35,903 nucleotides of DNA, taken from the IMG/VR virus record IMGVR_UViG_3300027963_000170, positions 1-35,903 of that record, one strand, 5' to 3'. The notes under the pieces were generated by a model, which was not told the origin of the DNA, searched no databases, and worked only from the letters and a program-made list of their open reading frames with translations. Below are positions 3,831 through 35,903 of the stretch, in pieces. A program made the translations under genes and the position numbers. Positions within the stretch are counted from its first letter, which is position 1; each line of letters begins with the position of its first letter. Source of the stretch: a virus (lineage: Duplodnaviria; Caudoviricetes).

Positions 3831-4067
3831 CTAATTCGGTGCGTAGAAATTGATCAGATGGCCATCGTATATCGACTGCGTCACGGTGATTTTACCTGCC
3901 TTTACCATGCGTTTCAACTCGATACTGGCTTGCTGCCAGCTGCGGTTGTTTAAGTCGGCATATTCGGCGACGCTCAGGTGCTTCGGGCTGGGCCTGCCAA
4001 CCTTCCGCTGCTTCATTAACTTTTCCCAGCCGGTGGGGACTGGGATCTTTTTCACGGTGTGGCTCAT
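3831..4067 (-). CDS. Winged helix-turn-helix-like small protein
   Basis: LSVAEYADLNNRSWQQASIELKRMVKAGKI followed by a beta wing; ATGA-coupled to the phosphoesterase. Confidence 0.6.
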   Translation of the reverse strand: MSHTVKKIPVPTGWEKLMKQRKVGRPSPKHLSVAEYADLNNRSWQQASIELKRMVKAGKITVTQSIYDGHLINFYAPN

Positions 4068-9282: not shown

Positions 9283-12200
9283 TTACTCTGCTTGCGTGGG
9301 TTGTTGCTGTCTGAACTTGTAAAGAGCTTGCGCGGTTGCTGCCCGAGACAAACTGGACATGTAGGCCCGGGCCTGACTCCGATCCTCGTCATCCAATTGA
9401 TCCGATAAACTAGCCAACCTTTTAAGCCGTTCCTCGTCATTTGCGAGCAAAATAGCCTTTAGGTTGCGACCACGCTCGACCGAGAATTCGTAGAACTGTC
9501 CGCCCATTTCTTTGCGGTATCCGTTCAAATCGGACGGCATGACATCCCGGTCCGCCCATGTTTTGTAGATACGTGCGCTTGGACTGTCATCCTTTTCCCA
9601 GTCCGCCAGCCAGCCTATGCCAAACCGTCCTTTGATCGGCTCGCCTAGTGCGTCTATGGCCGGGTCATTGAACTGAGATCCAAACGGTAGCTGTGCCAGC
9701 ATGGCCGATTTGATGTCGGCCCGAGATTTCTTTTCTCCGCCGGCCAAGGTTTCAAGTGACCGGAAGAATCCTGCCATTGGCACAAGGTTTGCCGCTTGTC
9801 CAACAGTCGCCCGCGCTACTACGTTGGAGATTGCCCGTTCACTTGTGGGTCGGTTTTCGTCAGTGGATAGCACTAATTCCTGCAATGAGGTCATAGGCGA
9901 TTGGCCTAGCGCAGCCGTGAACATACCCTGACCAAACACATAAGCCTCATAAACGACCTCCTGATTGCGGTCTTTGCCGTAGCGACGACGGTCATGAACA
10001 AAGCCGATTGCGGCCAAGTAGGGGGCCACTGGCATGAGCCGGTAGTCAATGAATGCCTTGCCGCCACCAGGTAGCTTTACCTCTAGGCTGTATGGTTTCC
10101 ACTTTCGCCCGTTCTGCGTTAGATCCTTGTCTCGATTGCCTGACCCGCGTCCGTGGATTTGCAGAAATGGCACGTTTTTCTCATCGTCCTCCGGCGCCGG
10201 CGGCACGCAGGCAAGCAATAGCGCCCCCATTGCCACTGTGCCGTAGATGCCGCGCATGAGCACGCGCTGTTTTTCTTCGTCGCTACGCTTGTAGTCCTCT
10301 CCGCCCGGCACCATTACCGGAACATCGGCAGCATCAAACATGGCCCGCACTAGCCCGACCGGACCATAGTCCAAACCTCGGTTAAACACGTTTGCCGGAG
10401 TGCGAATAAACGGCACGCTGTTGACCCGTAGCCATGCCGTCGCAGCTTTCAGCGCCTTTGCCTTGGCTCCAGTAGCCGGGAGACTTTCCGCAAACCGCAT
10501 AGCCCGGCCAAATGCTGCATCCACCGACAGTGCGACAACACCAATAACGCCCTCAGGTTGATACTGGAACGTCGCACGCCGAGCCATTCGCGTAGCTAGC
10601 TCAACCAATTTGCCGTCACGATCCATTTGCCGTAGTTCGTTGGCTCGGTTTTTGATCCACGTTTCTTCATCGGTTTGGCGTTGGATGTTCTCAGTTAGCG
10701 CATCCCACTCGGTCTTGGCCTGTGCGGCATGGTTGGTTTGCTGCTCGGCAGTCAGATTCAGCATCCGCTCAACTTCATATGGCGCCATGTCCTGCGTGAT
10801 TTCGCCGGCATCCACACGGTCCTGCACCATCTTTATGGCCAAATGCCGCGCCGTCAGTTCGTAAACGGACGCTTGAAACGTGGCATCCGTTGCGCTCATG
10901 ATACGTCCGATATATTTGCTGATGGCCCGGCTTTGCTCCATTGGCGCAGCAATCGCCCTTGGCCCTGCAATTGTGGTCCTTGACTCCATTGCTCCACCGC
11001 CACGTTCGACAGCCGCGTCCTGCTGCTGAATAGGCGAACGCCGTCCTTCTGCTATCTGCGTTCCAGCCAACCTCAATCCAATTTTCAGCCCTTCGACGGC
11101 CCCGTTGCTGATTTTGGCGTAGTAATCTAATGCTTTGCCCGGCTCAGTCAGGAGCTTGGTCGCCGCCATTTCGCCTACGTCAAACGCCATAAACGCTGCA
11201 TTGCCCAAAACGTTGCGCGCATTGGTAAGAATGGAGGATAGCACTCCAGAATACCAAAGCCCCACGCCGACATCTACCCAGTCGTAAGGCCGGATTTGCT
11301 CGTGCATGTAAGCGAACAGTTGCAGCGTTTGGTAAACACGTTCGTTGCTGCCAATCGGAGTGCTGGCAATGTTGCGTGCCAGCTTGGCCAGTTCGGCATT
11401 CTGTTGCGGGCTTGGCGTCGGGAGCTTGTATTTGTTGCGAAAGATTTGCTCTAGCCCCTTCACCGAGAGTTTACCGGCATTGAACATCTTCAGCGCACGG
11501 CCAATAGTCTGGCGCAGGTCGCGGGTTGTCGCAATGTCCTTGGCCTTCATCCGGCCAATCAGAGCGATTTCCAGTTGTTCTGCGGTAATGGTCTTGGCTC
11601 GCAACTCCTCCCTGACCTTTGCTGTTTCCTCGCGCAGTGCCTTCAGCCTGGCGTTCTCATCGGGCAAGCGACGGGAATCCAAGTAAGCCACAATCTCCTC
11701 GTCGGTGCCGGACTCCAGCAGTTGCTTGGCCTTTTGCAACTCCTCCTCCGCCAAAAACTGGCGCTGGATTTCCTTGCGAGTAATGGCTGTGGCGACCTCT
11801 GCCCGCGCATCGACCAACATGTTCTGGACAATGCCGCTGACTTCCTGAGCAATCGACTTGGCAAAGTCTTGGCTGAACAAGCCGGCGATCTTGCTGGTAA
11901 TTAACCCCTCTACTTCCATTGCCTTTACCGTTCCCTCCGCCGCTACCTTGCGCGGAGTGGTGTTGGCCTCATCAAACGCCTGCTTGATTAACTTGTTCAG
12001 AATGACCGTAACCGGAGAACCTCCTAGATCCTTGGTCTTGAGCGCCGCTAGCGCCGCGTCCTTCTGCTCCTCTGTCAAGACTTCGCTAGCCTCAATGCGT
12101 TTACGCGCCTCGGCGATAATCCCCTTGTAGCGCTCGGGCTGACTGAGGATGTCCGATGCCCGGTTGGCCAGTTCTTGCGCCGTTGGCTGCTCTGCCGCAC

Positions 12201-15200
12201 CACGCTCGGCCTCTGGTAACGCCGCCAGAATCTCGGCCTGAATGTCGGACGAAAAGATTTGCAGCAATGCCTTGCCCGCTCCGCCGTCCTTTGGCGTGAC
12301 TTTGGCTTCAATGGCATTTGCCACGCTGGCCTTGTAACGCTCCCATAGCGTTTGCTTGGCTGCATCGACAAACTTGCGCAAAGCATCGGCTCGGCTCACC
12401 GGCAGCGGTCCATCCATCTTGAGCCACGCAAGCTGACCCTCGCCCATCCGCTCCTGCATATCCTGAAACACCTGAAACAACTCGGCCGCAATCTGCGGAA
12501 TCGCTGCCTTCTCCTTTTCGCTCAACTCAGGTGCGTTGCGGTTATTGCGGTCGATCTCGCGCCGGAAGAACGCCTGCGCCCCCTCTTCAGTGTCGAGCAC
12601 GACAAAGCGCTTTAAGCCTTCGATAAACTGACCGGCTTCGGTGGCCACAGGCGCCCAAATGCTCAGGATGTCAGACACGGCAGCGTAGTCACCGCGTTTA
12701 TTTGCGGCTTGCATGAGGATTTGCGCAATCGCCGTCTTGGTGTCCATGTGAATTTTGTTGGTTCGGTCCATGATGACCTCGCGCAACTTGGCTACGTCCC
12801 CACCGTGTTTTGCTATAATGACCTGTGCTTCGTCATCGCCCACCGAGCGCGAGCGCACGTTGTAGGTCATGGCCGCTGCCGCCTTCCTCACTTCGTCGGC
12901 GTATTGCGGGTCCTGCTCGACGCGCATGGCCACACGCCGCTGTTTGATCGTTTCTTCTAGCTTGTTTGTGTAATCCTCATCGGACAACGAGTAAGTGATG
13001 TCCGGATTCGCCGCGTCAAACGTGCCGCGGTTGCCGGTTGCGCTTTTGATTTGAGTGGGGGAAAAAGCGATAAAGTAGCGATGTTGTGGCGCGCCCTCGG
13101 CATCCATGATGGCACCATCGAAACCTTTTGCCATCAATGCTTTTGTGAAATCATTAGCAATCTCCTTTATTTCAGGAAGTGATCTTGCTGTCTGCATCGT
13201 GCGACCAAGCAACTCCTTTTGTTTCCCAAAAATCACGCGATCTCCACCCCGCAAATCAACCGGGTTTTTAATCGAAAGAAATGCAAATACGACATTTTTG
13301 CCGTAACGTTCATCAACCGCCGTTTCAGTAAAATATCCGCCACTTCCCGCAACTCCTGTGCTTCGCTCCATGTCAAAAACCGTAAACTTTTCATTCGTGG
13401 CATGCTTAACCACTAACGGCTTGCCTTCCGCATCCACGACCTTGCTCGCGCCAAACCACGCACGAAACTCGGGCGTGTCGATTTGCGCCAGTGAGTAAGT
13501 GCGCACCAATGGATCATAACCCGTAAATGGTGAAATCATTTGCGCTACCTTATCAGGAAAAGTCTTCCCTTCATTGAAGCGTCGTATTCCAGCCAATGCC
13601 ATGTTAAGGTCTTTTGCGTTTTTTATACCACTTTGCGCAGCATAATCGCGTATATGATATGAAACGCCCTTGGGGTCTTCCGCCGTGCGCAAAAAAGCAT
13701 TTACAGCATCCACCGCTCGGTCGCGGTCGTAAATGCCGCGCTTCACTAAATCGTTCAATTCCTCTAAAGTGCGCCGCTCCGTGCCTTTTGGAAATGAACC
13801 ATATTCCATGGATTTATTTCCATAAACTGTTTTTCTTGATTCACGTTCTGCTATCGTTTTGTAATTAAACAACAATTTTGCCTCTTTAATATAGGCCTGC
13901 AATTCATCGCCACTAGGTAATTCAATTCCTTCCAGACTATACGTGTCACCCCACTGCATTCCAGACGCCACTCGCCCAACGCCAGTCATTGTCGGCCACA
14001 CCTTTTTACCCGCTGCCTCCATTCGATAGGCATCTTCAATAGCGGTAATCATGTCCGACACGAACGGAAAGTCAAAACCCTCTTCCGTTAAACTCTCCCG
14101 CACGCCATCTAGTGAGCCCCTTATTTTTTGTTTTTGACCCGCTGCATCGCGCTTAAACGTGACAAATAACTTAAGCCGGTCCTTTGGCATCATGTTATTA
14201 TAAAGCTGCTTCCAATCTCCGTGCAGAGGATCTTCTTTTAAAGTCGATGGAGCCGGTAATTTACGTGAACGCAAAATGCTCATCAAATCGCCATACTTGC
14301 CAAAGTCGGCCTCCATGTTCGCCTGCATCTCTTGCGCGGCCTGAATCCGATTTACATAGGCGTCATCCAATTTGAGCGCCCGGCGCAATTCACTTCTGAA
14401 GCCAATGGGAAGGTTTCCGTCCTGCTCCATTTGGATTAACCGCGCAGTCAATTCCATTAGGTTGGCAAAAAACTCCCGCAGTTGCTCCATGACCGCACGC
14501 ATGGTCAATGGCAGCGCCTTCTCTTGTTCGCCACGCCCAAGGACGTAAGCCTTTGCCGATTTGCTGAAAAACTCGACGGCAGCGCGGTAACGCGTCTCCT
14601 CGTTCATTCCGGCCCGATCCTGCTTCCCCTCAACCTGGTCCTGCCAGCCTTCGATTTCAGTAATCCCGACGTCACCCCTGTCTATCTGCTCCTTGATATG
14701 AGTCTCGGTCTTTTCCTCAACCAAAGTAAGCGGATTGGCTCCTGCCCAAAGCCGCTCCGCATAGCTATAAATCTTGGTTTTTGCGTCATACACCCGAATG
14801 CTCTCGCCGGGTATGGTGACGGTTTTTGCAGTATTGCCGGGCTTAATTGCCCCCATCTTAATGTAGAGGTCCACCAGAGCATTTGCCTGCTGCTCGGTCA
14901 TCCCGCCTTGCTCCTCGGGTTTACCTATGCGGTCCGACAAGCGCTGAATTGTATTTGGGTCGTAAATGGTCGATCCGCCCAAACGTGCCTCAAAAAAGTC
15001 AATCAGGTCGCGCACCCGCTCTTCGTTTGTGGCCATCTCCGCCTTATCCACATCCTCCTTTAATGCCAGCGCATCCTCTACGGTTGCGGCCTCATCCACG
15101 TATTGGCCCACGGAGTTGTAAACGGCATACGTGCCGGCATCGGTTTGCGCTATGCTCGCACCTTGGCTCTGACTTGCTGAATACCCGGCCATTTCCGATT

Positions 15201-17181
15201 CCAATGCGGCCATAGCCTGCCGCTGTTCATCGGTGTCCATTTGGCGCTTTTCCTCATTGTCCCAGAAGCCATGCACCATTTCATATACTGCTTCTTGCGT
15301 AGGTGCCGAAAGAATCTCCGCCGCCGCTTCTTTGGTAAAACCGACCGCCATAAGCGAACGCTCACTGGATAGGTATTGCCGGCCAAACGCTTTATCCGCA
15401 AAGGTGGCGTTTACCGTTCCGATAAGGGTCATTGGCAACAAAGCAATAGCCGTGGCCGGCAGGGTTGCTCCGTAGGATTTAAGATCCTCCATCGTTGCAG
15501 CCGGTATGCTAGGGTCTAGTCGGCTGGCAATGGTCTGGAAAACCATTCCCATGATGTCCTGACTGGCTTCTGTCGCAAACTCTGGGACGTAGGTGGTAGC
15601 AAATTGAAATGCTGCCCGTCCTGCAAATGCTTTGGCTGTCTGCGCCGTCAGCGGTTTTGCCGCAATGCGTTGAAGCACTGGCAGAGTGCCAAACAGAAGT
15701 TTTTGCCCAATGAAATGCTCTAGCGCCGTTTGCACTGCCGCCGACCCCATAGAAAACGTAGAGGTGTCACCCCATGCAACGCCACGACTGCGAGCATCCC
15801 GCATTTCCTTGTTGTAGGTCGTATTTAGAACCAGGGGAATGCCCACGTATGGCACTGCCGACATTGCCGTATAGGCAAACATGCCCGGAGAACTGGCCAA
15901 GGCATCGACGATATAATTGTCGAACTTCTGTGGATTTATTACGCCGTTTGCCAATCCATTAACAAAATTGGCCGCATCTATCTGTTTTGCGTCCGCTGCA
16001 TTTCTTGCCTTGAATGCCTCAAAGTCGGCGGGCGTGAACTCAATCGCACCGGCTTTTTGCTCCAGTCCAAATGGAACAGCACCTTGATTTAAGGTGCCTG
16101 CCATCTTTGCTTCTATTACGCGCTTTGCTTGCTCGTAAGGTAGCTTTGCAGTGCGCGCATTTTGCTCCACCTCGGCTTGATTCAGGTCAATAGCGTCCTT
16201 GAACAAGTCCACGAAATCACGGGACGCCCTCACGCCAAATTTTGCCGCGCCTTTTCCAAGTATAACCATGCCGCGATCAAGCATGGTTTGTCCCTTGCCT
16301 TGCTCATCTGCCCCGAACGTCGAAGGCATTTCCTGCGCTGGTTTATTCTTTGCCTGAATCAATGATGCCAGCACCGGCCAATCTTCACGCGGCAGGTTGG
16401 CAATTTCACTTGTCAGGTTTTTGAGGGAATCAGTGTTCCATACCGCACGGCGCAAATTGGTGGTGCCGCCATACGTTTTAAGCACTTCTACCGCATGTTC
16501 AGCCAGTGGCGTAAGCTCGGTCGTCTTGGTCTGGAGCTTGCCGTAAAAATCGCGAAATTGATTGCGACGAAGGTCGTGGGTTTTTTTGTCCCACCGTTGA
16601 TCGCTCCAAATGCCAACCGTCATGTATTCCCATGCGTCAGCATAACTTCTTCCTTTAATCGCAGAATCAGCCAGCGAAGCAGCACGTTCACCCCACATAG
16701 CCTGCTCGTCGTCCTCCTTTTGAAAGCGCTGCCCAATTAACTGGTAAAGCTCTTCATCCTGAATGTTGTCCCGCTTTATGCCCAGCACATGGTCGGCGTA
16801 AACTGACTTCGTGGCGTCCCAGCCATGTTCGTTCCACCCTGCCGGCAGGTTGCCAATGGTCTCAGAAATATGCTGTTCGACAATGGCTCGTGCCTTCACG
16901 CCACGCGGATTATCGGCGCCCACCGTTGCGTCATCTAGGGTTTTTGCTTTATCGGCCCCAAGGGCCACGTCTAGCTTGTCTAGGCCGGCAAAGTTAGCTC
17001 GCTGGCGATCTCTGGTTATGCGCTTTTGCTCGGCTGACGGTTCAAATGGAGCTAGCCCCTGCTCGCGTTTGGCGGCAGCGTAAGCCTGAAGTAATGGTTT
17101 TGCCTGATCTTGCTGTGGCTTATCCAGATGAGGCAGCGCATTTGTCAGCGTCAGGGCATCGGTATCTGATAGAATCGTCAT
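9283..17181 (-). CDS. Giant internal virion/ejection protein (polyvalent protein) with an ART-PolyVal-like cassette and an LPD38-like C-terminus
   Basis: Occupies the T7 gp16 position; mostly helical with hydrophobic segments; FRAWFGASKVVDAEGKPLVV.H.T...GYFT...LSIKNP...GFDG...QIKSATGNRGTFD; C-terminal PFIRTPANV...PYSL. Confidence 0.85.
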   Translation of the reverse strand: MTILSDTDALTLTNALPHLDKPQQDQAKPLLQAYAAAKREQGLAPFEPSAEQKRITRDRQRANFAGLDKLDVALGADKAKTLDDATVGADNPRGVKARAIVEQHISETIGNLPAGWNEHGWDATKSVYADHVLGIKRDNIQDEELYQLIGQRFQKEDDEQAMWGERAASLADSAIKGRSYADAWEYMTVGIWSDQRWDKKTHDLRRNQFRDFYGKLQTKTTELTPLAEHAVEVLKTYGGTTNLRRAVWNTDSLKNLTSEIANLPREDWPVLASLIQAKNKPAQEMPSTFGADEQGKGQTMLDRGMVILGKGAAKFGVRASRDFVDLFKDAIDLNQAEVEQNARTAKLPYEQAKRVIEAKMAGTLNQGAVPFGLEQKAGAIEFTPADFEAFKARNAADAKQIDAANFVNGLANGVINPQKFDNYIVDALASSPGMFAYTAMSAVPYVGIPLVLNTTYNKEMRDARSRGVAWGDTSTFSMGSAAVQTALEHFIGQKLLFGTLPVLQRIAAKPLTAQTAKAFAGRAAFQFATTYVPEFATEASQDIMGMVFQTIASRLDPSIPAATMEDLKSYGATLPATAIALLPMTLIGTVNATFADKAFGRQYLSSERSLMAVGFTKEAAAEILSAPTQEAVYEMVHGFWDNEEKRQMDTDEQRQAMAALESEMAGYSASQSQGASIAQTDAGTYAVYNSVGQYVDEAATVEDALALKEDVDKAEMATNEERVRDLIDFFEARLGGSTIYDPNTIQRLSDRIGKPEEQGGMTEQQANALVDLYIKMGAIKPGNTAKTVTIPGESIRVYDAKTKIYSYAERLWAGANPLTLVEEKTETHIKEQIDRGDVGITEIEGWQDQVEGKQDRAGMNEETRYRAAVEFFSKSAKAYVLGRGEQEKALPLTMRAVMEQLREFFANLMELTARLIQMEQDGNLPIGFRSELRRALKLDDAYVNRIQAAQEMQANMEADFGKYGDLMSILRSRKLPAPSTLKEDPLHGDWKQLYNNMMPKDRLKLFVTFKRDAAGQKQKIRGSLDGVRESLTEEGFDFPFVSDMITAIEDAYRMEAAGKKVWPTMTGVGRVASGMQWGDTYSLEGIELPSGDELQAYIKEAKLLFNYKTIAERESRKTVYGNKSMEYGSFPKGTERRTLEELNDLVKRGIYDRDRAVDAVNAFLRTAEDPKGVSYHIRDYAAQSGIKNAKDLNMALAGIRRFNEGKTFPDKVAQMISPFTGYDPLVRTYSLAQIDTPEFRAWFGASKVVDAEGKPLVVKHATNEKFTVFDMERSTGVAGSGGYFTETAVDERYGKNVVFAFLSIKNPVDLRGGDRVIFGKQKELLGRTMQTARSLPEIKEIANDFTKALMAKGFDGAIMDAEGAPQHRYFIAFSPTQIKSATGNRGTFDAANPDITYSLSDEDYTNKLEETIKQRRVAMRVEQDPQYADEVRKAAAAMTYNVRSRSVGDDEAQVIIAKHGGDVAKLREVIMDRTNKIHMDTKTAIAQILMQAANKRGDYAAVSDILSIWAPVATEAGQFIEGLKRFVVLDTEEGAQAFFRREIDRNNRNAPELSEKEKAAIPQIAAELFQVFQDMQERMGEGQLAWLKMDGPLPVSRADALRKFVDAAKQTLWERYKASVANAIEAKVTPKDGGAGKALLQIFSSDIQAEILAALPEAERGAAEQPTAQELANRASDILSQPERYKGIIAEARKRIEASEVLTEEQKDAALAALKTKDLGGSPVTVILNKLIKQAFDEANTTPRKVAAEGTVKAMEVEGLITSKIAGLFSQDFAKSIAQEVSGIVQNMLVDARAEVATAITRKEIQRQFLAEEELQKAKQLLESGTDEEIVAYLDSRRLPDENARLKALREETAKVREELRAKTITAEQLEIALIGRMKAKDIATTRDLRQTIGRALKMFNAGKLSVKGLEQIFRNKYKLPTPSPQQNAELAKLARNIASTPIGSNERVYQTLQLFAYMHEQIRPYDWVDVGVGLWYSGVLSSILTNARNVLGNAAFMAFDVGEMAATKLLTEPGKALDYYAKISNGAVEGLKIGLRLAGTQIAEGRRSPIQQQDAAVERGGGAMESRTTIAGPRAIAAPMEQSRAISKYIGRIMSATDATFQASVYELTARHLAIKMVQDRVDAGEITQDMAPYEVERMLNLTAEQQTNHAAQAKTEWDALTENIQRQTDEETWIKNRANELRQMDRDGKLVELATRMARRATFQYQPEGVIGVVALSVDAAFGRAMRFAESLPATGAKAKALKAATAWLRVNSVPFIRTPANVFNRGLDYGPVGLVRAMFDAADVPVMVPGGEDYKRSDEEKQRVLMRGIYGTVAMGALLLACVPPAPEDDEKNVPFLQIHGRGSGNRDKDLTQNGRKWKPYSLEVKLPGGGKAFIDYRLMPVAPYLAAIGFVHDRRRYGKDRNQEVVYEAYVFGQGMFTAALGQSPMTSLQELVLSTDENRPTSERAISNVVARATVGQAANLVPMAGFFRSLETLAGGEKKSRADIKSAMLAQLPFGSQFNDPAIDALGEPIKGRFGIGWLADWEKDDSPSARIYKTWADRDVMPSDLNGYRKEMGGQFYEFSVERGRNLKAILLANDEERLKRLASLSDQLDDEDRSQARAYMSSLSRAATAQALYKFRQQQPTQAE

Positions 17182-28927: not shown

Positions 28928-30543
28928 CGTATGACCCTAGGTTTTCTCCAGCTTGCCAACCCAGTCAAGCTCTGCGGGCGCCTTTGCATCTGCGCTTTTG
29001 GCCGCACCGGCATGGCCGAGCGATCCACGCACAACCCTAGCCGAATTACCTGATGTGTGTAGCCAAACGCCGTCGAGGCATGAGACGCCCAATCATGGAC
29101 CGGCACGTTTTTAACCGTCCCAGTGTCCCCTCCTTCTTCCTTTGCCCTATAAGCCTCAAGTGAGTTAATCCCCCACTCGCACCCCTTCGCATGAAGGAAA
29201 CAGCGGGAAAACGAGGTCAGCGCGTCGTTAATGTTATCCCAGACATCCGTCGGCCTCGGCAAACACACCACCCCACGTAATTCCGACTCCCGCAACAACC
29301 GCGCCCACAAAGTTTCCCCATCATGCGGCAGAAAATGCCCGCCATACGTGTAGGCCGTTTTTGCTTTTAACCTGCGCGCCCAATCTCCGGGCGTGTTGCA
29401 ATCATCCCCACCCCTCAAACACTCCAAGTAATTGATTCGATCCCCAATAATCTGCCAGAGCCAGCAAATCGTGTTGGTCGGCGCGCCAATGTCGAAAGTC
29501 GAGTAAACCGGAAACCCCTCGTAGTGCATCACGTTTGGCCCAATCCGACCAGCCAATCGCGCCTTGTCCACCTCCGGCCCATAAATCGCTCCCACAATCG
29601 GCGTCATCCAACTCTCTTCCAAGGTCGTCGGAAACTCCGCGTAAATCTTTCGCCCCAACTCCCTCCGCTTTTTGTAGTAAAATAGCCTCTGCCCATCCGT
29701 AAACCGAAAGTCCATCCCTCCTTTCATCTGAATCTCCAGTTCCTTACCCGCCAAATACTCCCTCACCTCCCTATCCACTTGCTCCACATTCCCATTTTCC
29801 GTGTAGCGCGGTTCCATATACCACGGAAAAAACATCACTCGAAAATCCTTCGATGTCCGATGCTCCTCCGGCGTCTCCAGACTCCGTTTCAGCAACTCAT
29901 ACCAATCCCCTCCCTTCCCTCCTTCGTGCGTCGATTCCGCAAAAATCAATGCCTTGTCACCAGACGCAGCCTGCAAAACACCCGTCACAATCTCCGCCGA
30001 CCTAATCGGATCCCTATGCGCTATCGGCCCCCACTCCGAAATATGCACCACCTGCGGCGTTCTACCACGCGCTTTCATCCCCGCACTAATGCTGGACCCA
30101 TTCTCAAACTCAATCGCCCCCTTGTTTGAAATCAGCATCTTGTCCTGCAACTCCTTTGGCAGTCTCTCCCACGCAAACTTGATCTTTGCCAACTTCGCCT
30201 GCGCATCGTCCACACTCTTGTCGATAATCACCCCACGCAGACTGCTCCCCTTTTGACAAAAATGGACCGTATCAAACTGAATCAGGGCTATCAGGGTGGA
30301 AAAACCTAGCTGTCTGGCCTTGGGAATCGCTATGCGCTTTACCCCATCCACAAAAACAGCGTGCAGCACCTCGCACTGCGCACGGTTCGGGACAAACTTC
30401 ACTGCCTTTCCGTCCGCATCCTCAATGCTGTAAAGATTGCAAATCCGAATCAATGGGTCCCCCAAACGCGCAAGAACCTCCCCATCGCTCAAACCTTCCG
30501 GCAGCACGTAGTCGCTAGGGTCTATTCGTTGACCAATTTTCAT
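28924..30543 (-). CDS. terL: Terminase large subunit
   Basis: Q motif PNRAQ, Walker A IPKARQLGFST, Walker B VVHISE, AEST, FFPW, nuclease motifs FDIG, LPHD and PVHDWASH. Confidence 0.95.
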   Translation of the reverse strand: MKIGQRIDPSDYVLPEGLSDGEVLARLGDPLIRICNLYSIEDADGKAVKFVPNRAQCEVLHAVFVDGVKRIAIPKARQLGFSTLIALIQFDTVHFCQKGSSLRGVIIDKSVDDAQAKLAKIKFAWERLPKELQDKMLISNKGAIEFENGSSISAGMKARGRTPQVVHISEWGPIAHRDPIRSAEIVTGVLQAASGDKALIFAESTHEGGKGGDWYELLKRSLETPEEHRTSKDFRVMFFPWYMEPRYTENGNVEQVDREVREYLAGKELEIQMKGGMDFRFTDGQRLFYYKKRRELGRKIYAEFPTTLEESWMTPIVGAIYGPEVDKARLAGRIGPNVMHYEGFPVYSTFDIGAPTNTICWLWQIIGDRINYLECLRGGDDCNTPGDWARRLKAKTAYTYGGHFLPHDGETLWARLLRESELRGVVCLPRPTDVWDNINDALTSFSRCFLHAKGCEWGINSLEAYRAKEEGGDTGTVKNVPVHDWASHASTAFGYTHQVIRLGLCVDRSAMPVRPKAQMQRRPQSLTGLASWRKPRVIR

Positions 30544-30731
30544 GGCGTAAAGTGTATGCCTATTTCAATCCGGCTGTAAACCCCCGACCTCCCTGCCACC
30601 GATTTGCCCCCCACCCCCACCCCCGACCCCCTTTCCGGCGCGCAAGGCCCCCACCCCCACCCCACCCGGCACGGCACGCACGCGGCACGCGCTGGGCACC
30701 TGCGCACGGTCGGCACGCCCGCACGGCTCAT
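30540..30731 (-). other. terS-terL spacer: two G-quadruplex-competent tracts, a GCACG array and a 63-codon bridging ORF
   Basis: C-run clusters at 30607-30631 and 30648-30667 on +; 8 GCAC copies in 30669-30724; ATGA overlaps with both the terS stop and the terL start. Confidence 0.6.
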
Positions 30732-31249
30732 GCCTCCCCCTCGGCTTCATCCAACTCTACGGCTTCACTTGCGACCGCGCTGGACTCGATTGCATGCCGG
30801 GCACCCTCAGCGGCAGCTAGCTCAATGACTGGCCGAGCAGCGCGTATGCGATCCAGTAGCGACCCCTCGACACTCACCCGCACCTCAGTGGGCTTGTCGA
30901 AGCCCAGCATTCGCGACGCCTGCGCGATTGCTGCGATCACATCCCGAGACGTTGCCTCACTGTCCGCCCCCTCCCGGTCGATGATACGCAGGAGACCGCG
31001 CACCAGGTCCGCCCGCGTGACCGCATTGACCCGAGCTTGCGCCGCCTGCCCCGCTTCCAGTGCAGCCTGCACCACCGGACGCCGCTTTAGCTCCGCCGCT
31101 TTGATGCGCAGATGCTCGATGCAGCCACTTTGCGAGTAGCCGGCCGCAAGGTAGGCGACAGACGGCGACTTGCCCTCAAGGAGCCCGCTCACGAACTCCC
31201 GCTGACGTGCAGTTAGTAGATTTCTTGGTGCCTTTGTTGCCATTACCAT
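30728..31249 (-). CDS. terS: Terminase small subunit
   Basis: LTARQREFV......S...AY.AAGYS HTH-type N-terminus; ...ASRMLGFD; directly upstream of terL. Confidence 0.88.
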   Translation of the reverse strand: MVMATKAPRNLLTARQREFVSGLLEGKSPSVAYLAAGYSQSGCIEHLRIKAAELKRRPVVQAALEAGQAAQARVNAVTRADLVRGLLRIIDREGADSEATSRDVIAAIAQASRMLGFDKPTEVRVSVEGSLLDRIRAARPVIELAAAEGARHAIESSAVASEAVELDEAEGEA

Positions 31250-31462
31250 GTTGTAAACTGCCCGACCCTCCCCGCTTAACTAGCCCCGCGCAAGCCCAAA
31301 GCGCACGCCGCGCTCCCCTGACCGCACGCGCACGCGATCAGCTCCGAAGCGCACGCACGTTAGCGCAGACCCTCCCGGCCCGACCGACCGACCGAGAGGG
31401 CGAGCGATTCCAGCAGACTCCGATACGCGGTCCGCCTTCGCTATTGCGCGCTAGCTGCCAGC

Positions 31463-31492
31463 AAGGTGGAGGCGCCGCCGGCTCGGTGTCAA
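31463..31492 (-). promoter_or_regulatory. Candidate promoter upstream of terS
   Basis: TTGACA at 31492-31487, 18-bp spacer, CACCTT; shares CTTGACACCG with the site at 32030. Confidence 0.4.
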
Positions 31493-32001
31493 GCTTGGAC
31501 CTTTTCGCACCAGCTTGCCCCACTTGGTTTCCCCGCACCCCTTCCGGTCGGACCCGATCCCAAACCTTTTCAATCCTTTCCCTCTCCAATCCCTTCCGCT
31601 CCAACTCTCCCCGCTTCCGTTGCCCCTTGGTTCCCCGGTTTGCTCTCTCTGTTCCCCCGCTCAGTCCCTCGCCGGGTCTTCGCTGGACTTACTTTGGAAA
31701 GACGATGAGCCGGAGCAAAGCCCCCCCTTCCCCCAGCGTGCAGCAGGAGGAGGGAGAGGACTTGCGTCTGGACAGACTTGGAAAGCCGTGTCGCCGTCGC
31801 ATGAGCTGGCAGGATTCGCGCTCGGTATGCCCCAACTTTGGCGCTACTTTATCACCCCACCAGAGAGGAGGAGGCCCCAGCCTTCCCCCAGCATTTACGA
31901 GCGCCAGCCGGTTAGTTGACCGAGGGCGCCCACCGATTGAAAAGGAACACGGCGAGGATAAACCCCCACCGGCCGGCAGAGAATTCCCCACCGACACGCA
32001 C

Positions 32002-32030
32002 ACCCTGAACAGCTCCGACGCCGGTGTCAA
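32002..32030 (-). promoter_or_regulatory. Candidate leftward promoter
   Basis: TTGACA, 17-bp spacer, CAGGGT, with an AT-rich UP-like tract upstream. Confidence 0.5.
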
Positions 32031-32147
32031 GCACGCCAAAAATAAATGCATTAAGCCCTCTTTTTGCGTATCCAAAAAAGAATTTTTGACCCCTACTTTT
32101 CAGAGGTAAAACCCCGTATCCAAACCATAACGCATGCAAAAAAGAGC

Positions 32148-32176
32148 TTGCACACACTCCCCTGTTTTGCTTTGGT
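32148..32176 (+). promoter_or_regulatory. Candidate rightward early promoter
   Basis: TTGCAC, 17-bp spacer, TGc-TTTGGT; A-tract upstream; hairpin CGGGCC-aattcc-GGCCCG (32185-32202) just downstream. Confidence 0.45.
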
Positions 32177-32221
32177 GTCGATGTCGGGCCAATTCCGGCC
32201 CGCCACCCACCACACCACCAC

Positions 32222-32455
32222 ATGACCACCACCACCACCACTGCCCAGAACGAATACACCGAGGCCGGCTTTGAAAACCGCCGCGCCTACTTGACCGACT
32301 TGGCCGAGCAATACGGCTTAGATACCTATATCGTTTTTTCAATGGCCTCGATCCTTGGCCGCTCCGAGGACTTCGACGGACTTATTTCCGCGCTGGAGGA
32401 CGAAGCCGACTGCCTAGCCTGCACCGAAGACCTTACCATTGAGGAAGCCGCCTGA
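32222..32455 (+). CDS. Small acidic early protein
   Basis: Y.E.GFENRRAYL..LAE.YG...A..LG..EDFDGL..ALED; first gene of the early block. Confidence 0.78.
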   Translation: MTTTTTTAQNEYTEAGFENRRAYLTDLAEQYGLDTYIVFSMASILGRSEDFDGLISALEDEADCLACTEDLTIEEAA

Positions 32456-32513
32456 CCAACCAACTCCAACCCGCCGGGGCGCTTCAAACGCTCCGGCTCC
32501 TTCCCCCCCCACC

Positions 32514-33032
32514 ATGACCACCACCGACACCACGCCCCGCCTTTACGTGGGCACCTACGCCAAATACGCCGCCGGCTCAATCGCCGGCGCTTGGCTCGAC
32601 ATGGAAGCCTACCACGACCGCGACGACTTTCTGGAGGCTTGCCGCGCCCTGCACTCGGACGAGTCCGACCCCGAACTAATGTTTCAGGATGTCGAGGGCA
32701 TCCCCTCGCCTTGGTATAACGAGAGCGAAGCACCCCCCGCCGAGCTTTGGGAATGGCTTGCGCTCAGCACCGACGAGCGCGAGGCATTTGCCCTTTGGGC
32801 GGATTACTACGGCGAAGGTCCAACCGTTGACCAATTCCGCGAGCGCTACGTCGGCACGGCAGACAGTGAAGCCGACTTCGCCGAGAATCTAGCCAACCAA
32901 TGGGGTGACATCACTGCCGACCTCCCATCATGGCTCTGCATTGACTGGCAGAGGACTTGGGATTCATGGTTTTTTTACGACTATTATAGCGTCCGCGCCT
33001 CCGACGGCACGCTCCACTTTTTCCGTCGTTAA
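32514..33032 (+). CDS. ardA: ArdA antirestriction (DNA mimic) protein
   Basis: PRLYVGTYAKY..GSI.G.WLD, DPELMFQD.E.IP, acidic composition, C-terminal IDW..TW...YDY...HFFR; best ATG at 32514. Confidence 0.92.
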   Translation: MTTTDTTPRLYVGTYAKYAAGSIAGAWLDMEAYHDRDDFLEACRALHSDESDPELMFQDVEGIPSPWYNESEAPPAELWEWLALSTDEREAFALWADYYGEGPTVDQFRERYVGTADSEADFAENLANQWGDITADLPSWLCIDWQRTWDSWFFYDYYSVRASDGTLHFFRR

Positions 33033-33044
33033 TCCCCCACCACC

Positions 33045-33434
33045 ATGCAGACCGAACTCTCTATTGCTGCCGAAATCTTTAACCTTTTCGCGCCGGTCCC
33101 CGCGCCCACGCCCGAGCCGGCCCCCGAGCCGCTCCCCGACTTTACCGAGCCGTCCCCTGTGCTCGATCCAACCCCGCTTCCCGGCGAGATATGGCAGCAC
33201 CCACCCAGCGCCACCATTGCTTTCCTTGACCACGACCCCCGCGACTGCTTGCCCTGGCGCTTTTCCCTCAGGAGCACCAACACGGGTAAACTTGTCGCCC
33301 AAGGCTACCACCATACACGCGACGCGGCCGACGCCGCCGCCTTGACCACCGCTCGCGCACTCGCCGACCAGCACCACGACGAGCGCACCGAGGCCCGCGC
33401 CTTTCCCGCCACCCGCACCAACTTCCACGATTAA
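33045..33434 (+). CDS. Hypothetical early protein with a Pro-rich linker
   Basis: CCACC-ATG start shared with neighbouring genes; WRFSLRSTNTGKLVAQGY hairpin. Confidence 0.7.
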   Translation: MQTELSIAAEIFNLFAPVPAPTPEPAPEPLPDFTEPSPVLDPTPLPGEIWQHPPSATIAFLDHDPRDCLPWRFSLRSTNTGKLVAQGYHHTRDAADAAALTTARALADQHHDERTEARAFPATRTNFHD

Positions 33435-33460
33435 ACCACCCACCGGCCCCTTTCCCTCCC

Positions 33461-33673
33461 ATGACCACCACCACACCCAGCACCAACCGCGATCTTCTTG
33501 CCCGCATATGGTGTGACCTGCGTTGCGTCCATTTATCTAACGACGGCGCCGACTCCCAGCGCATGACCAACGCGCCCGACCGCTTTCTCACTAACGCCGC
33601 CAAGCCTTACGCGAGCAACGCCATTAACTGGCGCGCCTACGGCCGCCAGTATTTCACCCGCACCACCGCTTAA
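33461..33673 (+). CDS. Small hypothetical early protein
   Basis: MTTTT start; C-ending codon bias like neighbouring genes. Confidence 0.6.
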   Translation: MTTTTPSTNRDLLARIWCDLRCVHLSNDGADSQRMTNAPDRFLTNAAKPYASNAINWRAYGRQYFTRTTA

Positions 33674-33684
33674 CTTTTCCCGCC

Positions 33685-33828
33685 ATGCACCCAACCACCC
33701 GCCAGACCATCAACCAAATCCTGCACGCCCGCGCCCAGGCCCAAGCCGCCCGCGCCGCCGCCCAGCACCAGCGTCACGCCCGCGCCGTGCGCAGCCTCAC
33801 CCGCGCCGGCGTCATTGCCCGCGCCTAA
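33685..33828 (+). CDS. Small Ala/Arg-rich helical peptide (47 aa, not in the ORF track)
   Basis: MHPTTRQTINQILHARAQAQAARAAAQHQRHARAVRSLTRAGVIARA; fills the gap between neighbouring genes. Confidence 0.55.
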   Translation: MHPTTRQTINQILHARAQAQAARAAAQHQRHARAVRSLTRAGVIARA

Positions 33829-33850
33829 CCCCCTCCCCCTTTTTCTTCCC

Positions 33851-34165
33851 ATGAACCACACGACAACAGCCAGCGCTCCAACAGCCAGCCACACGCCAGG
33901 CCCTTGGTTTGTCCACACCACGCCCCACGGCGTCCGACACATTCTAGACACCAAGTGCCCCACGCTTGCCACCGCCCCGATAACGACCTTTAACGGTACG
34001 GCATATTGGAGCCTCGCAGAAACCACAGCCAACGCCCGCCTTATCGCCGCCGCGCCCGCCATGCTCGCCGCGCTGCGCGCCCTAGTCCACCCAATAGCCA
34101 GCGACGAGGACGTTGACCACGCCCGCGCCGTGATCGCGGCAGCAACAGCCAGCGCCCAAACCTGA
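33851..34165 (+). CDS. Phage early protein of the HTPGPW...ANARLIAAAP type
   Basis: HTPGPW and ANARLIAAAP.ML.AL motifs; ATG at 33851. Confidence 0.82.
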   Translation: MNHTTTASAPTASHTPGPWFVHTTPHGVRHILDTKCPTLATAPITTFNGTAYWSLAETTANARLIAAAPAMLAALRALVHPIASDEDVDHARAVIAAATASAQT

Positions 34166-34177
34166 CTTATTTTTCAG

Positions 34178-34390
34178 ATGACCACACCAACCAACACCAT
34201 TACAGTTCTTTTACAGATTGCCTCCCCTGATGGGGAATCAGTCTTTTTCTACAGCAACGCCCGCGACGGCGCACCGCCAGACGCACCCGGCCCACGGCAG
34301 TTTGCCAGCTTAATAGCTGAGCTTGAACAGGCACTTACTGCAGCACACAAGAAACTATGCCCCTTGCCCGACGACCATGACCGCAACTAA
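34178..34390 (+). CDS. Small hypothetical protein
   Basis: MTT start; 70 aa within the operon. Confidence 0.55.
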   Translation: MTTPTNTITVLLQIASPDGESVFFYSNARDGAPPDAPGPRQFASLIAELEQALTAAHKKLCPLPDDHDRN

Positions 34391-34628
34391 GCATCACCTA
34401 CAGCACGGAGAACAGCCACGCGTGCGCCTTGCCAACGGCCCCACCGTTGACAGCAACACCGCGCAACTGTTCACCCTTTGGACCTCACGCGGCCCCAGCA
34501 TCGGACAAGTGATCGACCGTCTCACAAGCCACGCCCTGGCGTCCGGCTTTTGCCCCGTCACCTGCACAATAATCCCCCGCCACCCCGTTTTTGCTAGCAA
34601 CTTAACCAAACAACAGCCAGCGACATGA
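34377..34628 (+). CDS. Small protein, possible ribbon-helix-helix
   Basis: PRVRL...TV..NT..LF..W...G.SIGQVIDRL; ATGA-coupled to the SSB-like gene. Confidence 0.55.
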   Translation: MTATKHHLQHGEQPRVRLANGPTVDSNTAQLFTLWTSRGPSIGQVIDRLTSHALASGFCPVTCTIIPRHPVFASNLTKQQPAT

Positions 34629-35377
34629 GTAAAATTATTACTATCACCGAGCTATTATCTATGCCCCCCGGAGGCTCAGGCTCACCAGCCTACGTCAACG
34701 GAGAATTTGAAGCCGTCGTCGCCGACGCCAAAACCGTCCAAACCAAGACCGGGAAAACTATGTATAAGGCGAAACTCGCCGATCCACAAAACCCCAGCGT
34801 CACAATTGGCGCAACGGCATGGGGAACGGACTTCACCAGCAAGGCCGGCAAGGTTGTCCATTTTTCTGGTAAAGGAATGACACTCACCAGTTACAAAGAC
34901 ACAAACGAACTGACCATAGGCGACAAAGCCAACGTGCGCGTTGTTGGTTCCCACGCCCCAGCCGCCGCCCCAGCTACAGCAACAACAGCCAGCGTCCCGA
35001 CGGGCGCACGCCCCGCTACGCTCGGCGTGATCCACGGCGCAACCGTTGGCATGGCGATCAATCAGGCTATGGCCGCATTGCTGTCCAGCTACGCAGGCGC
35101 AGACATCAGCATGGTCCCCTCGTTTACCCGCGACCTTTACACGCTCGCCAGCGACATTATCCGCGTGAGCTTGCATCTGGAGCAAGGCAACCTTGCCCCC
35201 TCCCCCAAGGACCGAGCCAAAGCCAACAGCCAGAACGCCGACATTGACGAGACAGCGCCCGAACAAGTTCCTCCGCCTGCACCACCCCCACCACCTGCTC
35301 CACCTAGACGCGTTCCGCCAGCGTCCGACGGATTTAACGTAGCCATCCCACCCGACGGCGAAGACGTGCCGTTTTGA
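34625..35377 (+). CDS. Single-stranded DNA-binding protein-like (OB fold, helical domain, acidic tail)
   Basis: OB-fold-like N-terminus (KTVQTKTGKTMYKAKLAD...ATAWG), Pro-rich linker, C-terminal DGEDVPF typical of SSB tails; next to the exonuclease. Confidence 0.7.
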   Translation: MSKIITITELLSMPPGGSGSPAYVNGEFEAVVADAKTVQTKTGKTMYKAKLADPQNPSVTIGATAWGTDFTSKAGKVVHFSGKGMTLTSYKDTNELTIGDKANVRVVGSHAPAAAPATATTASVPTGARPATLGVIHGATVGMAINQAMAALLSSYAGADISMVPSFTRDLYTLASDIIRVSLHLEQGNLAPSPKDRAKANSQNADIDETAPEQVPPPAPPPPPAPPRRVPPASDGFNVAIPPDGEDVPF

Positions 35378-35414
35378 TTTACCCGCCACCTAACCGCTGA
35401 CACCACCACCTATT

Positions 35415-35903
35415 ATGGCCGAAAAATCCTCCCACTGGTATGCTGCCGACGGCAGCGCCCACCACACCGTCCCGGTAAAATCCAAGCCGGGCACCTACCG
35501 CCCCACCACCCTGCGCGACGCCAAGGAGTTGCGCCTTTACCCCAGCGTCACGACCATCCTCGGCATGTTCGCCAAGCCCCAGCTTGAGGACTGGAAGTTT
35601 CGCCAGATCACCGACGCAGCCCACGCCTCCCCACCAACAGCCAGCGAAACGACGCAGGAATACCACGACCGCATACTGGAGCGTGCCTTCCAGCAGGTCC
35701 AAGATGCGGCTGATGCCGGCACCCTAATCCACAAGGGAGCCGAACTTGCTTTGTCCGGACTAGAATACGACGAGGACGCGCCGGTGTTTTTACCCAGTTT
35801 GAATGCCAGCTTCCCACTCAAGACCTTTATTGAGCCGATTTGCCGATTCGTCGCCGACGAGGAGATCAACGTGACCGGAAACGAGTTGCGACTAGTTAAT
35901 CAG
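35415..35903 (+). CDS. PD-(D/E)XK exonuclease (Cas4-like phage recombination nuclease), truncated by the window end; not in the ORF track
   Basis: Manual translation: MAEKSSHWYAADG...TTLRDAKELRLYPSVTTILG..AKPQLEDWK...AADAGTLIH...E.RLV; no stop before the end. Confidence 0.85.
   Translation, partial: MAEKSSHWYAADGSAHHTVPVKSKPGTYRPTTLRDAKELRLYPSVTTILGMFAKPQLEDWKFRQITDAAHASPPTASETTQEYHDRILERAFQQVQDAADAGTLIHKGAELALSGLEYDEDAPVFLPSLNASFPLKTFIEPICRFVADEEINVTGNELRLVNQ

Follow-up and report, generated by a model that had tools for sequence, protein, structure and literature searches.

The genomes of Cluster A mycobacteriophages (L5 with its gp71, Bxb1, TipsytheTRex) carry operators and stoperators, at which, according to the available portions of two sources (PMC9283540, PMC6550527), elongation is halted by a monomeric repressor bound to asymmetric sites of 13-14 bp that point in the direction of transcription. 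Repressors with multiple asymmetric operators are also described, in the accessible part of PMC1934351, for phages P1 and P7 and for the Bacillus phage phi105. In this work we describe an array of co-oriented copies of a short word inside the early genes of a virus of the Caudoviricetes (IMG/VR record IMGVR_UViG_3300027963_000170, positions 1 to 35,903; this whole stretch of 35,903 nucleotides is called the window), which is the nearly complete podovirus-like genome of an uncultured freshwater phage. As far as the portions of the sources go, the Cluster A stoperators are the closest described case, being likewise asymmetric, of similar length, present in many copies, oriented with transcription and lineage-specific in sequence. 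The repressors of P1, P7 and phi105 resemble the protein that we propose below as the reader of the array in having multiple asymmetric operators. Their operators belong to temperate immunity systems tied to promoters and, unlike them, the window array showed no promoter link (one site associated with a promoter, against 1.1 by chance) and no repressor was found for it in the window.

The original prediction had reported a co-oriented 12-mer in five exact copies accompanied by several near copies. The five exact copies (starting at 33864, 34143, 34611, 34983 and 35635) were all recovered on the plus strand and none was found on the minus strand, while matches with one mismatch were present at 33879, 34092 and 1220 and one with two mismatches at 35224. 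The invariant part of the word was the 10-mer CAACAGCCAG, of which we found seven copies, all on the plus strand between 33864 and 35644 and none elsewhere in the window, the original prediction having noticed no full copy in the late block. Because the invariant core was the 10-mer and not the 12-mer, two of the matches formerly listed as near copies (33879 and 35224) are full members of the array, the 12-mer being the extension shared by the other five. Conservation of the columns had sharp edges, with ten invariant columns followed by columns kept in 6/7 and 5/7 copies, and the copies were separated by 15, 264, 468, 372, 241 and 411 nt. The motif had no dyad symmetry and 7/7 copies were in the sense direction. 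They were embedded, as had been stated, in four genes, namely a PHROG 1273 gene (three copies), e8 (one), ssb (two) and an exonuclease gene (one). The statement that all three codon phases were used was also true, the use of the phases being uneven: five of the seven copies were read as xTAS, one as QQPA and one as NSQ. All seven sites fell in unconserved segments, corresponding to tolerant linkers and tails.

The other near copies look like coding coincidences and were not counted. At 34092 the peptide is conserved in the PHROG 1273 family (HP[IM]ASD) and a relative designated X2, whose long pieces are mostly 85-97% alike, has a further change there; at 34023 the peptide ANARL is conserved in the same family; and the match at 1220 has ACC, a common Thr codon, and scored 13.6 bits, the next best score, against 20.7-25.7 bits for the seven sites, under a profile trained on these same seven sites. 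A shorter core, ACAGCCA, occurred 13 times in the early block, and its four copies outside the cluster, all of them Thr-Ala codon pairs, were not counted either.

In the codon-preserving shuffle that had been proposed as a check, the proteins were kept fixed and synonymous codons were shuffled across 18 plus-strand genes. The 2000 shuffles gave zero, one and two copies of the 12-mer in 1922, 77 and 1 cases, respectively, against five observed, and a maximum of two copies of the 10-mer, against seven observed. In a post-hoc control in which any non-simple word was admitted (400 shuffles), the best 12-mer reached three copies and the best 10-mer reached five copies once. Matches to the 12-mer with at most two mismatches numbered 14, against a mean of 4.57 and a maximum of 10 in 100 dinucleotide shuffles. 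The Thr codon at all five T-A-S sites was ACA, placed after an xCA codon; ACA was a minor Thr codon (33/219 early Thr codons), and the seven other TAS peptides of the genome were written with different codons. The probability that three further independent sites would have these codons was about 4e-7, with the tandem copy dropped and the calculation conditioned on the first site. The array of co-oriented copies is real and statistically strong, and the excess obtained with the proteins fixed, together with the choice of a minor codon, supports the proposal that the constraint acts on the nucleic acid rather than on the protein.

All sites are given here on the plus strand. Site 1 (33864..33882) comprises the 12-mer, 4 nt and AAC, this tail being the start of site 2, and is read as T-T-A-S-A in the PHROG 1273 gene (33851..34165, plus strand, function unassigned). 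Site 2 (33879..33897), formed by the 10-mer core and CC, lies 15 nt after site 1 and is possibly a tandem duplicate, and site 3 (34143..34161; 12-mer, 4 nt and AAC) is found in the C-terminal tail of the same gene. In the tail of e8 (34377..34628, plus strand), a conserved 83-aa gene of unassigned fold that is also present in relatives without the motif, site 4 (34611..34629) is a 12-mer with the reading QQPA; it stands 2 nt before the start codon of ssb (34625..35377, plus strand), whose product has the predicted structure of an OB-fold single-stranded-DNA-binding protein with an acidic tail. Within ssb, site 5 (34983..35001; 12-mer, 4 nt and GAC) falls in a low-confidence linker after the OB fold and site 6 (35224..35242; 10-mer core, AA, 4 nt and GAC) has the reading NSQ and lies close to where the tail begins. 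Site 7 (35635..35653; 12-mer, 4 nt and GAC) is located in a variable segment of the PD-(D/E)xK exonuclease (PHROG 298; 35415..35903, plus strand), which is cut by the contig end and complete in the viral locus L001.

A triplet R-A-C was present 4 nt past the 12-mer (+16 to +18) in five of the seven copies, the other two keeping two of its three letters, and the four letters between 12-mer and triplet differed at every site. When positions matched for codon phase were drawn, an equally informative three-column window among 30 flank columns was obtained in 14 of 10000 draws with the seven copies, in 75 of 10000 with the six copies left after removing site 1 (its triplet coincides with the beginning of site 2) and in 43 of 10000 with the five sites outside the tandem pair. 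The relative X2 retained purine-A-C at these offsets, in a loose end of its sequence, despite different neighbouring letters, and a 19-nt repeat family (D3) covered the sites. These data suggest, and no more than suggest, that the core and the downstream triplet together make up one bipartite site, about 19 bp long.

The core was found on neither strand of 17 loci from relatives, which include about five independent lineages, several of the loci being the same or near-identical genomes. These lineages share the e8-ssb order and have primases 57-81% identical, and a word scan of ten relative loci revealed no comparable intragenic array. The exonuclease motif peptide was present in one of the 120 homologues listed, in addition to cluster members at 98-99%, and was absent from sisters 79-81% identical. 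TAS and ANSQ of the ssb linker were present in two of 32 homologues, the two closest, leaving out of the count three further homologues with TAS in a conserved helix. Among the PHROG 1273 homologues, the TTTASA start was found in 3/36 and the ATAS tail in two of those three, the cores of these motif-bearing homologues being only 48-61% alike overall; KQQPA of e8 was retained in two of the three other cluster members. In the PHROG 1273 gene (window 33851-34165), the core is swapped between fixed ends among close relatives (P0046, P0049 and P0071), the motif-bearing ends being kept where the core was replaced.

Residue changes beside the sites in close relatives fell mostly at bases that the motif leaves free. 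The changes T>P before TAS and V>A after TAS in the ssb linker of P0014 were both of this kind, the PHROG 1273 tails had A or D after TAS, and residues 2-3 of that protein varied while TTTASA was fixed in 3/3. Homology with X2 ended at 34154, the last base of the 12-mer of site 3, and directly past it a different gene replaced e7. This distribution, along with the loss of some sites in close relatives, indicates that the array arose recently, is specific to this lineage and is not fixed absolutely. In viral contigs, a tandem-core scan (27 of 64 parts) gave 118 loci, none with a dispersed 12-mer array, and the multi-copy loci inspected were tandem repeats. The search with a start-context pattern gave three loci, corresponding to the identical genome and two unrelated single matches; scans of viral and metagenome contigs yielded no loci other than identical or distant ones; and neither the early region nor ssb nor two small candidate regulators had a match among GenBank phages. 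No description of such an array was found in a literature search, most subscription papers being outside its reach.

The motif-less relatives share three genes without counterpart in the window, which encode a 300-aa coiled-coil protein (PHROG 10477; L010:155-1054, L013:5175-6092, L014:4925-5824 and L015:94-972), a Pif1/Dda helicase (L010:6626-7915) and a product encoded between exonuclease and primase (L013:9019-9552). The coiled-coil protein was considered as a possible Gam-like end-binder; it gave a coiled-coil model, no Pfam Gam match, no PDB sequence match and no fold match below E 0.001. These relatives also have short words of their own (AGTCACGC, TCCAGTCAC and CTAAATTTTCC), mostly just before start codons (L013:4702, 6894, 7275, 9610 and 11541; L014:3725, 6821, 9619 and 11990; L010:139, 1051 and 6612).

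Beyond a constrained DNA word, every step that follows is something that we infer. A long, asymmetric, sharply bounded, probably bipartite and sense-only word has the anatomy of a protein-binding site, and the sites are likely to be bound by one sequence-specific protein, probably encoded by the phage; an array of protein-binding sites, which the original prediction had mentioned among its alternatives, is a better fit than the Chi mimic that it had put forward. The reading that we prefer, tentatively and as something short of an even chance, is that the sites serve a phage protein as one-way roadblocks on transcription of ssb, exonuclease and possibly primase. One protein would bind double-stranded DNA at the sites and, once bound, would affect elongation, by analogy to the mycobacteriophage stoperators, so that the replication genes (ssb, exonuclease and the downstream primase) would be damped as the late genes come on. 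The candidate reader is a predicted winged helix-turn-helix (HTH) protein of 78 aa (3831..4067, minus strand), encoded by the last gene of the late strand, for which Atlas gave FaeA/PapI by features (0.91) and an IclR-type HTH by structure. Among motif-less relatives, 13 loci were searched for its gene without detecting it, although two of these loci span the early/late junction, and two further searches found no relatives of the protein. The products of e8 and of a gene at 2628 were also considered as ribbon-helix-helix binders, a by-eye resemblance that was otherwise unsupported.

The array shares with stoperators an asymmetric core of 10-12 nt (about 19 nt with the triplet), 7/7 copies in the sense direction and 0 in reverse; it matches them in geometry and is not a member of that class. 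The L5 operator printed in the available part of PMC1934351 shares seven letters with the minus strand of the motif, which we treated as chance. If the sites are bound, a multi-site cis-regulatory code would have arisen quickly inside protein-coding genes, with disordered linkers and tails serving as the free space, in a phage without sign of lysogeny. The sister lineages, some with and some without the array, lend themselves to comparison, and a site of this length could be tested with oligonucleotides and one 78-aa protein, no phage culture being needed. We consider unlikely the wider scenario in which a lysogeny-free phage recently wrote roadblock sites into its replication genes, to be read by a late winged-helix protein as a replication-to-packaging timer, gained together with the loss of the Pif1 helicase and two further genes.

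Several observations weigh against the roadblock reading. What links the sites to the candidate reader is that a small number of relatives lack both, and a gene of 78 aa can easily escape detection. All seven sites are intragenic and are confined to 1.8 kb, whereas L5, in the portions of the sources available, has 20-30 sites across its genome, at promoters and in short intergenic gaps. The L5 reader is, in the same portions, an immunity repressor of 183 aa encoded by a temperate phage; none such was found in the window, where the 47 translations of open reading frames (ORFs) scanned included no integrase and no recognisable immunity repressor. In addition, the triplet is a post-hoc finding from seven sequences, and conservation in the closest relatives was read through proteins only. 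Site 4 was lost in P0005, site 3 was altered in P0046 and site 2 in P0049. Finally, about 6/26 residues differ in the P0014 linker, so that the intact TAS found there is unremarkable by itself.

The mimic of Chi that had been proposed supposes that a shorter word inside the 12-mer attenuates a host RecBCD/AddAB enzyme entering from a terminus near terS, and we regard it as quite unlikely. The orientation of the array does suit such an enzyme moving rightward, given the established polarity of RecBCD and provided that a terminus lies near terS; a 125-bp terminal repeat near terL is reported for related pelagiphages in the available part of PMC10504331. The accessible part of PMC3784561 describes, for lambdoids without RecBCD inhibitors, an enrichment of Chi between the origin and the packaging site, and the window likewise has a polar word clustered between replication and terminase genes and no Gam/Abc2 family match in Pfam and PHROG scans. 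RecB scored above the cut-off in two of five candidate-host genomes (both Chthoniobacterales), and the minus strand of the motif shares GCTGG with several Chi octamers, as far as the available text of PMC8022716 goes, in which the Chi motifs of Proteobacteria are octamers. Unlike Chi, which is an octamer or shorter and is over-represented and polarised in its host, the motif is longer, probably bipartite, and has neither property in the candidate hosts tested. Ten invariant columns in 7/7 copies plus the triplet go beyond what an 8-mer core would fix, and none of the 8-mer sub-words recurred in other early genes, except AACAGCCA, which was found twice. Between terS and the first copy, the 2,601 nt closest to the presumed end (31250..33850, with a non-coding gap, ardA and small early genes) contained in a motif scan nothing closer than two mismatches to the core, and about 970 nt of this stretch are non-coding, where a site would cost nothing. 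The 12-mer showed no dispersed enrichment in 401 Verrucomicrobiota genomes: at least one copy was present in 217 of them, with counts resembling those of the reversed control, and the highest count, 11, was largely due to one repeat near contig ends. The 9-mer ACAGCCAGC, which covers two candidate octamers, had polarities of 0.62 and 0.61 in two single-contig genomes of candidate hosts (G002, 50 of 58 sites listed, and G201, 100 of 110), matched by 316 and 131 of 500 shuffles, respectively. The relatives' coiled-coil protein, moreover, lent no support as a Gam. If the mimic were nevertheless true, the word would be a candidate Chi for a host group without a described Chi in the literature searched. 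It also seems improbable that the word is bound on mRNA or single-stranded DNA, for instance by the phage OB-fold protein, as a translational operator or loading mark. All sites being on the sense strand, with site 4 just before the ssb start, would agree with it, as would a model of the ssb N-terminal domain that matches simple SSBs and also sequence-specific telomere OB folds (Teb1, TEBP and POT1), and an ssb only 39-50% identical to that of relatives with 57-81% identical primases. However, such likeness of OB folds does not imply sequence specificity, six of the seven sites have no start codon right after them, no fold was shared (z from -0.9 to +1.7 in six windows), no Rfam match reached the gathering level (a weak C4 RNA match had 23.8 bits against a cut-off of 45) and the minus strand had no complementary copy of the motif.

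It is doubtful, too, that the copies are functionless and that short-range template switching or microhomology recombination copied one word into tolerant C/A-rich linkers and tails. Their direct orientation, tight clustering and 15-nt tandem pair, the position of every site in an unconserved segment and the recent origin with some losses are all in accord with copying; other 12-mers also occur three times in the array region, although these correspond to common codons or start contexts. Copying of a contiguous patch would not predict a triplet kept beyond four differing letters, six independent fixations across four genes would be required, and no comparable array was seen in the five syntenic lineages. 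Somewhat similar doubts apply to iteron-like sites at which an initiator would bind, or at which the primase-helicase or a host helicase would be loaded. Origin iterons are direct repeats of roughly 17-22 bp with close regular spacing beside an AT-rich region, and those of plasmids and phages are bound by winged-helix Rep proteins. The sites are like them in being direct repeats of about 19 bp, a length that plasmid iterons also have, in consisting of conserved blocks with free bases in between, and in being situated in the ssb-exonuclease-primase module. No DNA polymerase or initiator was found in the window and, lacking the Pif1/Dda helicase that motif-less relatives have along with two more genes, this lineage could start replication differently. 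Unlike iterons, the sites are inside genes and irregularly spaced, 241-468 nt apart outside the tandem pair, far beyond the spacing of origin iterons; the array region has 58-65% GC (1-kb windows) and no turn of the cumulative GC skew; and no initiator or Rep protein was detected among the Pfam and PHROG matches in the window, where remote initiators could be missed.

A host within the Verrucomicrobiota is weakly suggested by sequence relatives of the replication genes. Exonuclease relatives at 42% were found in two Chthoniobacterales, one Burkholderiaceae and one unclassified genome, none of them syntenic, and primase relatives at 31-35% in four of the 401 Verrucomicrobiota genomes. One Verrucomicrobiota genome (G041) has at several contig ends (L155 and L156) a family of repeats of about 108 nt which contains the 12-mer and is otherwise unlike the window. 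A 20-nt match in another genome (G376), which has no other similarity to the window and is apparently coding there, was taken as chance.

The late genes of the phage are on the minus strand, running leftward from terS (30728-31249), and the early genes are on the plus strand from 32222, in the order ardA, small ORFs, PHROG 1273 gene, e7, e8, ssb and exonuclease, followed by a T7-gp4-like primase-helicase gene across the contig break. The contig ends cut through the exonuclease and primase genes. L001, 100% identical over 11,279 nt, prolonged the window by 573 nt, which contained zero copies of the motif, and about 130 nt of the primase gene, as estimated from one relative's primase, lie outside the window and L001. 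The capsid protein was 34-39% identical to its counterparts in HTVC010P-type pelagiphages and Ralstonia phages. No polymerase, integrase or tRNA was found in scans of the window.

Early starts at 32215, 32507, 33454, 33828-33851 and 34175 have C/T-rich leaders with no Shine-Dalgarno motif, and several of these leaders carry ATGACCACCAC (repeat families D1, D2 and D4). The region 29000-34000 has a strong C-over-G skew on the plus strand (to -0.39), which continues without a turn across late and early genes. A virion protein of 2632 aa (9283-17181, minus strand) contains an ART-PolyVal ADP-ribosyltransferase domain at residues 1250-1388, and the RusA-like gene has two long overlapping plus-strand frames (2169-2606 and 2248-2589), both open in L013 and L014. 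A single GTAC is present in the 35.9 kb, against 44-318 occurrences of each other 4-base palindrome, which suggests a host restriction system with that site; GTAC is likewise scarce in L012-L015 and L139, and CCWGG is also depleted in the window.

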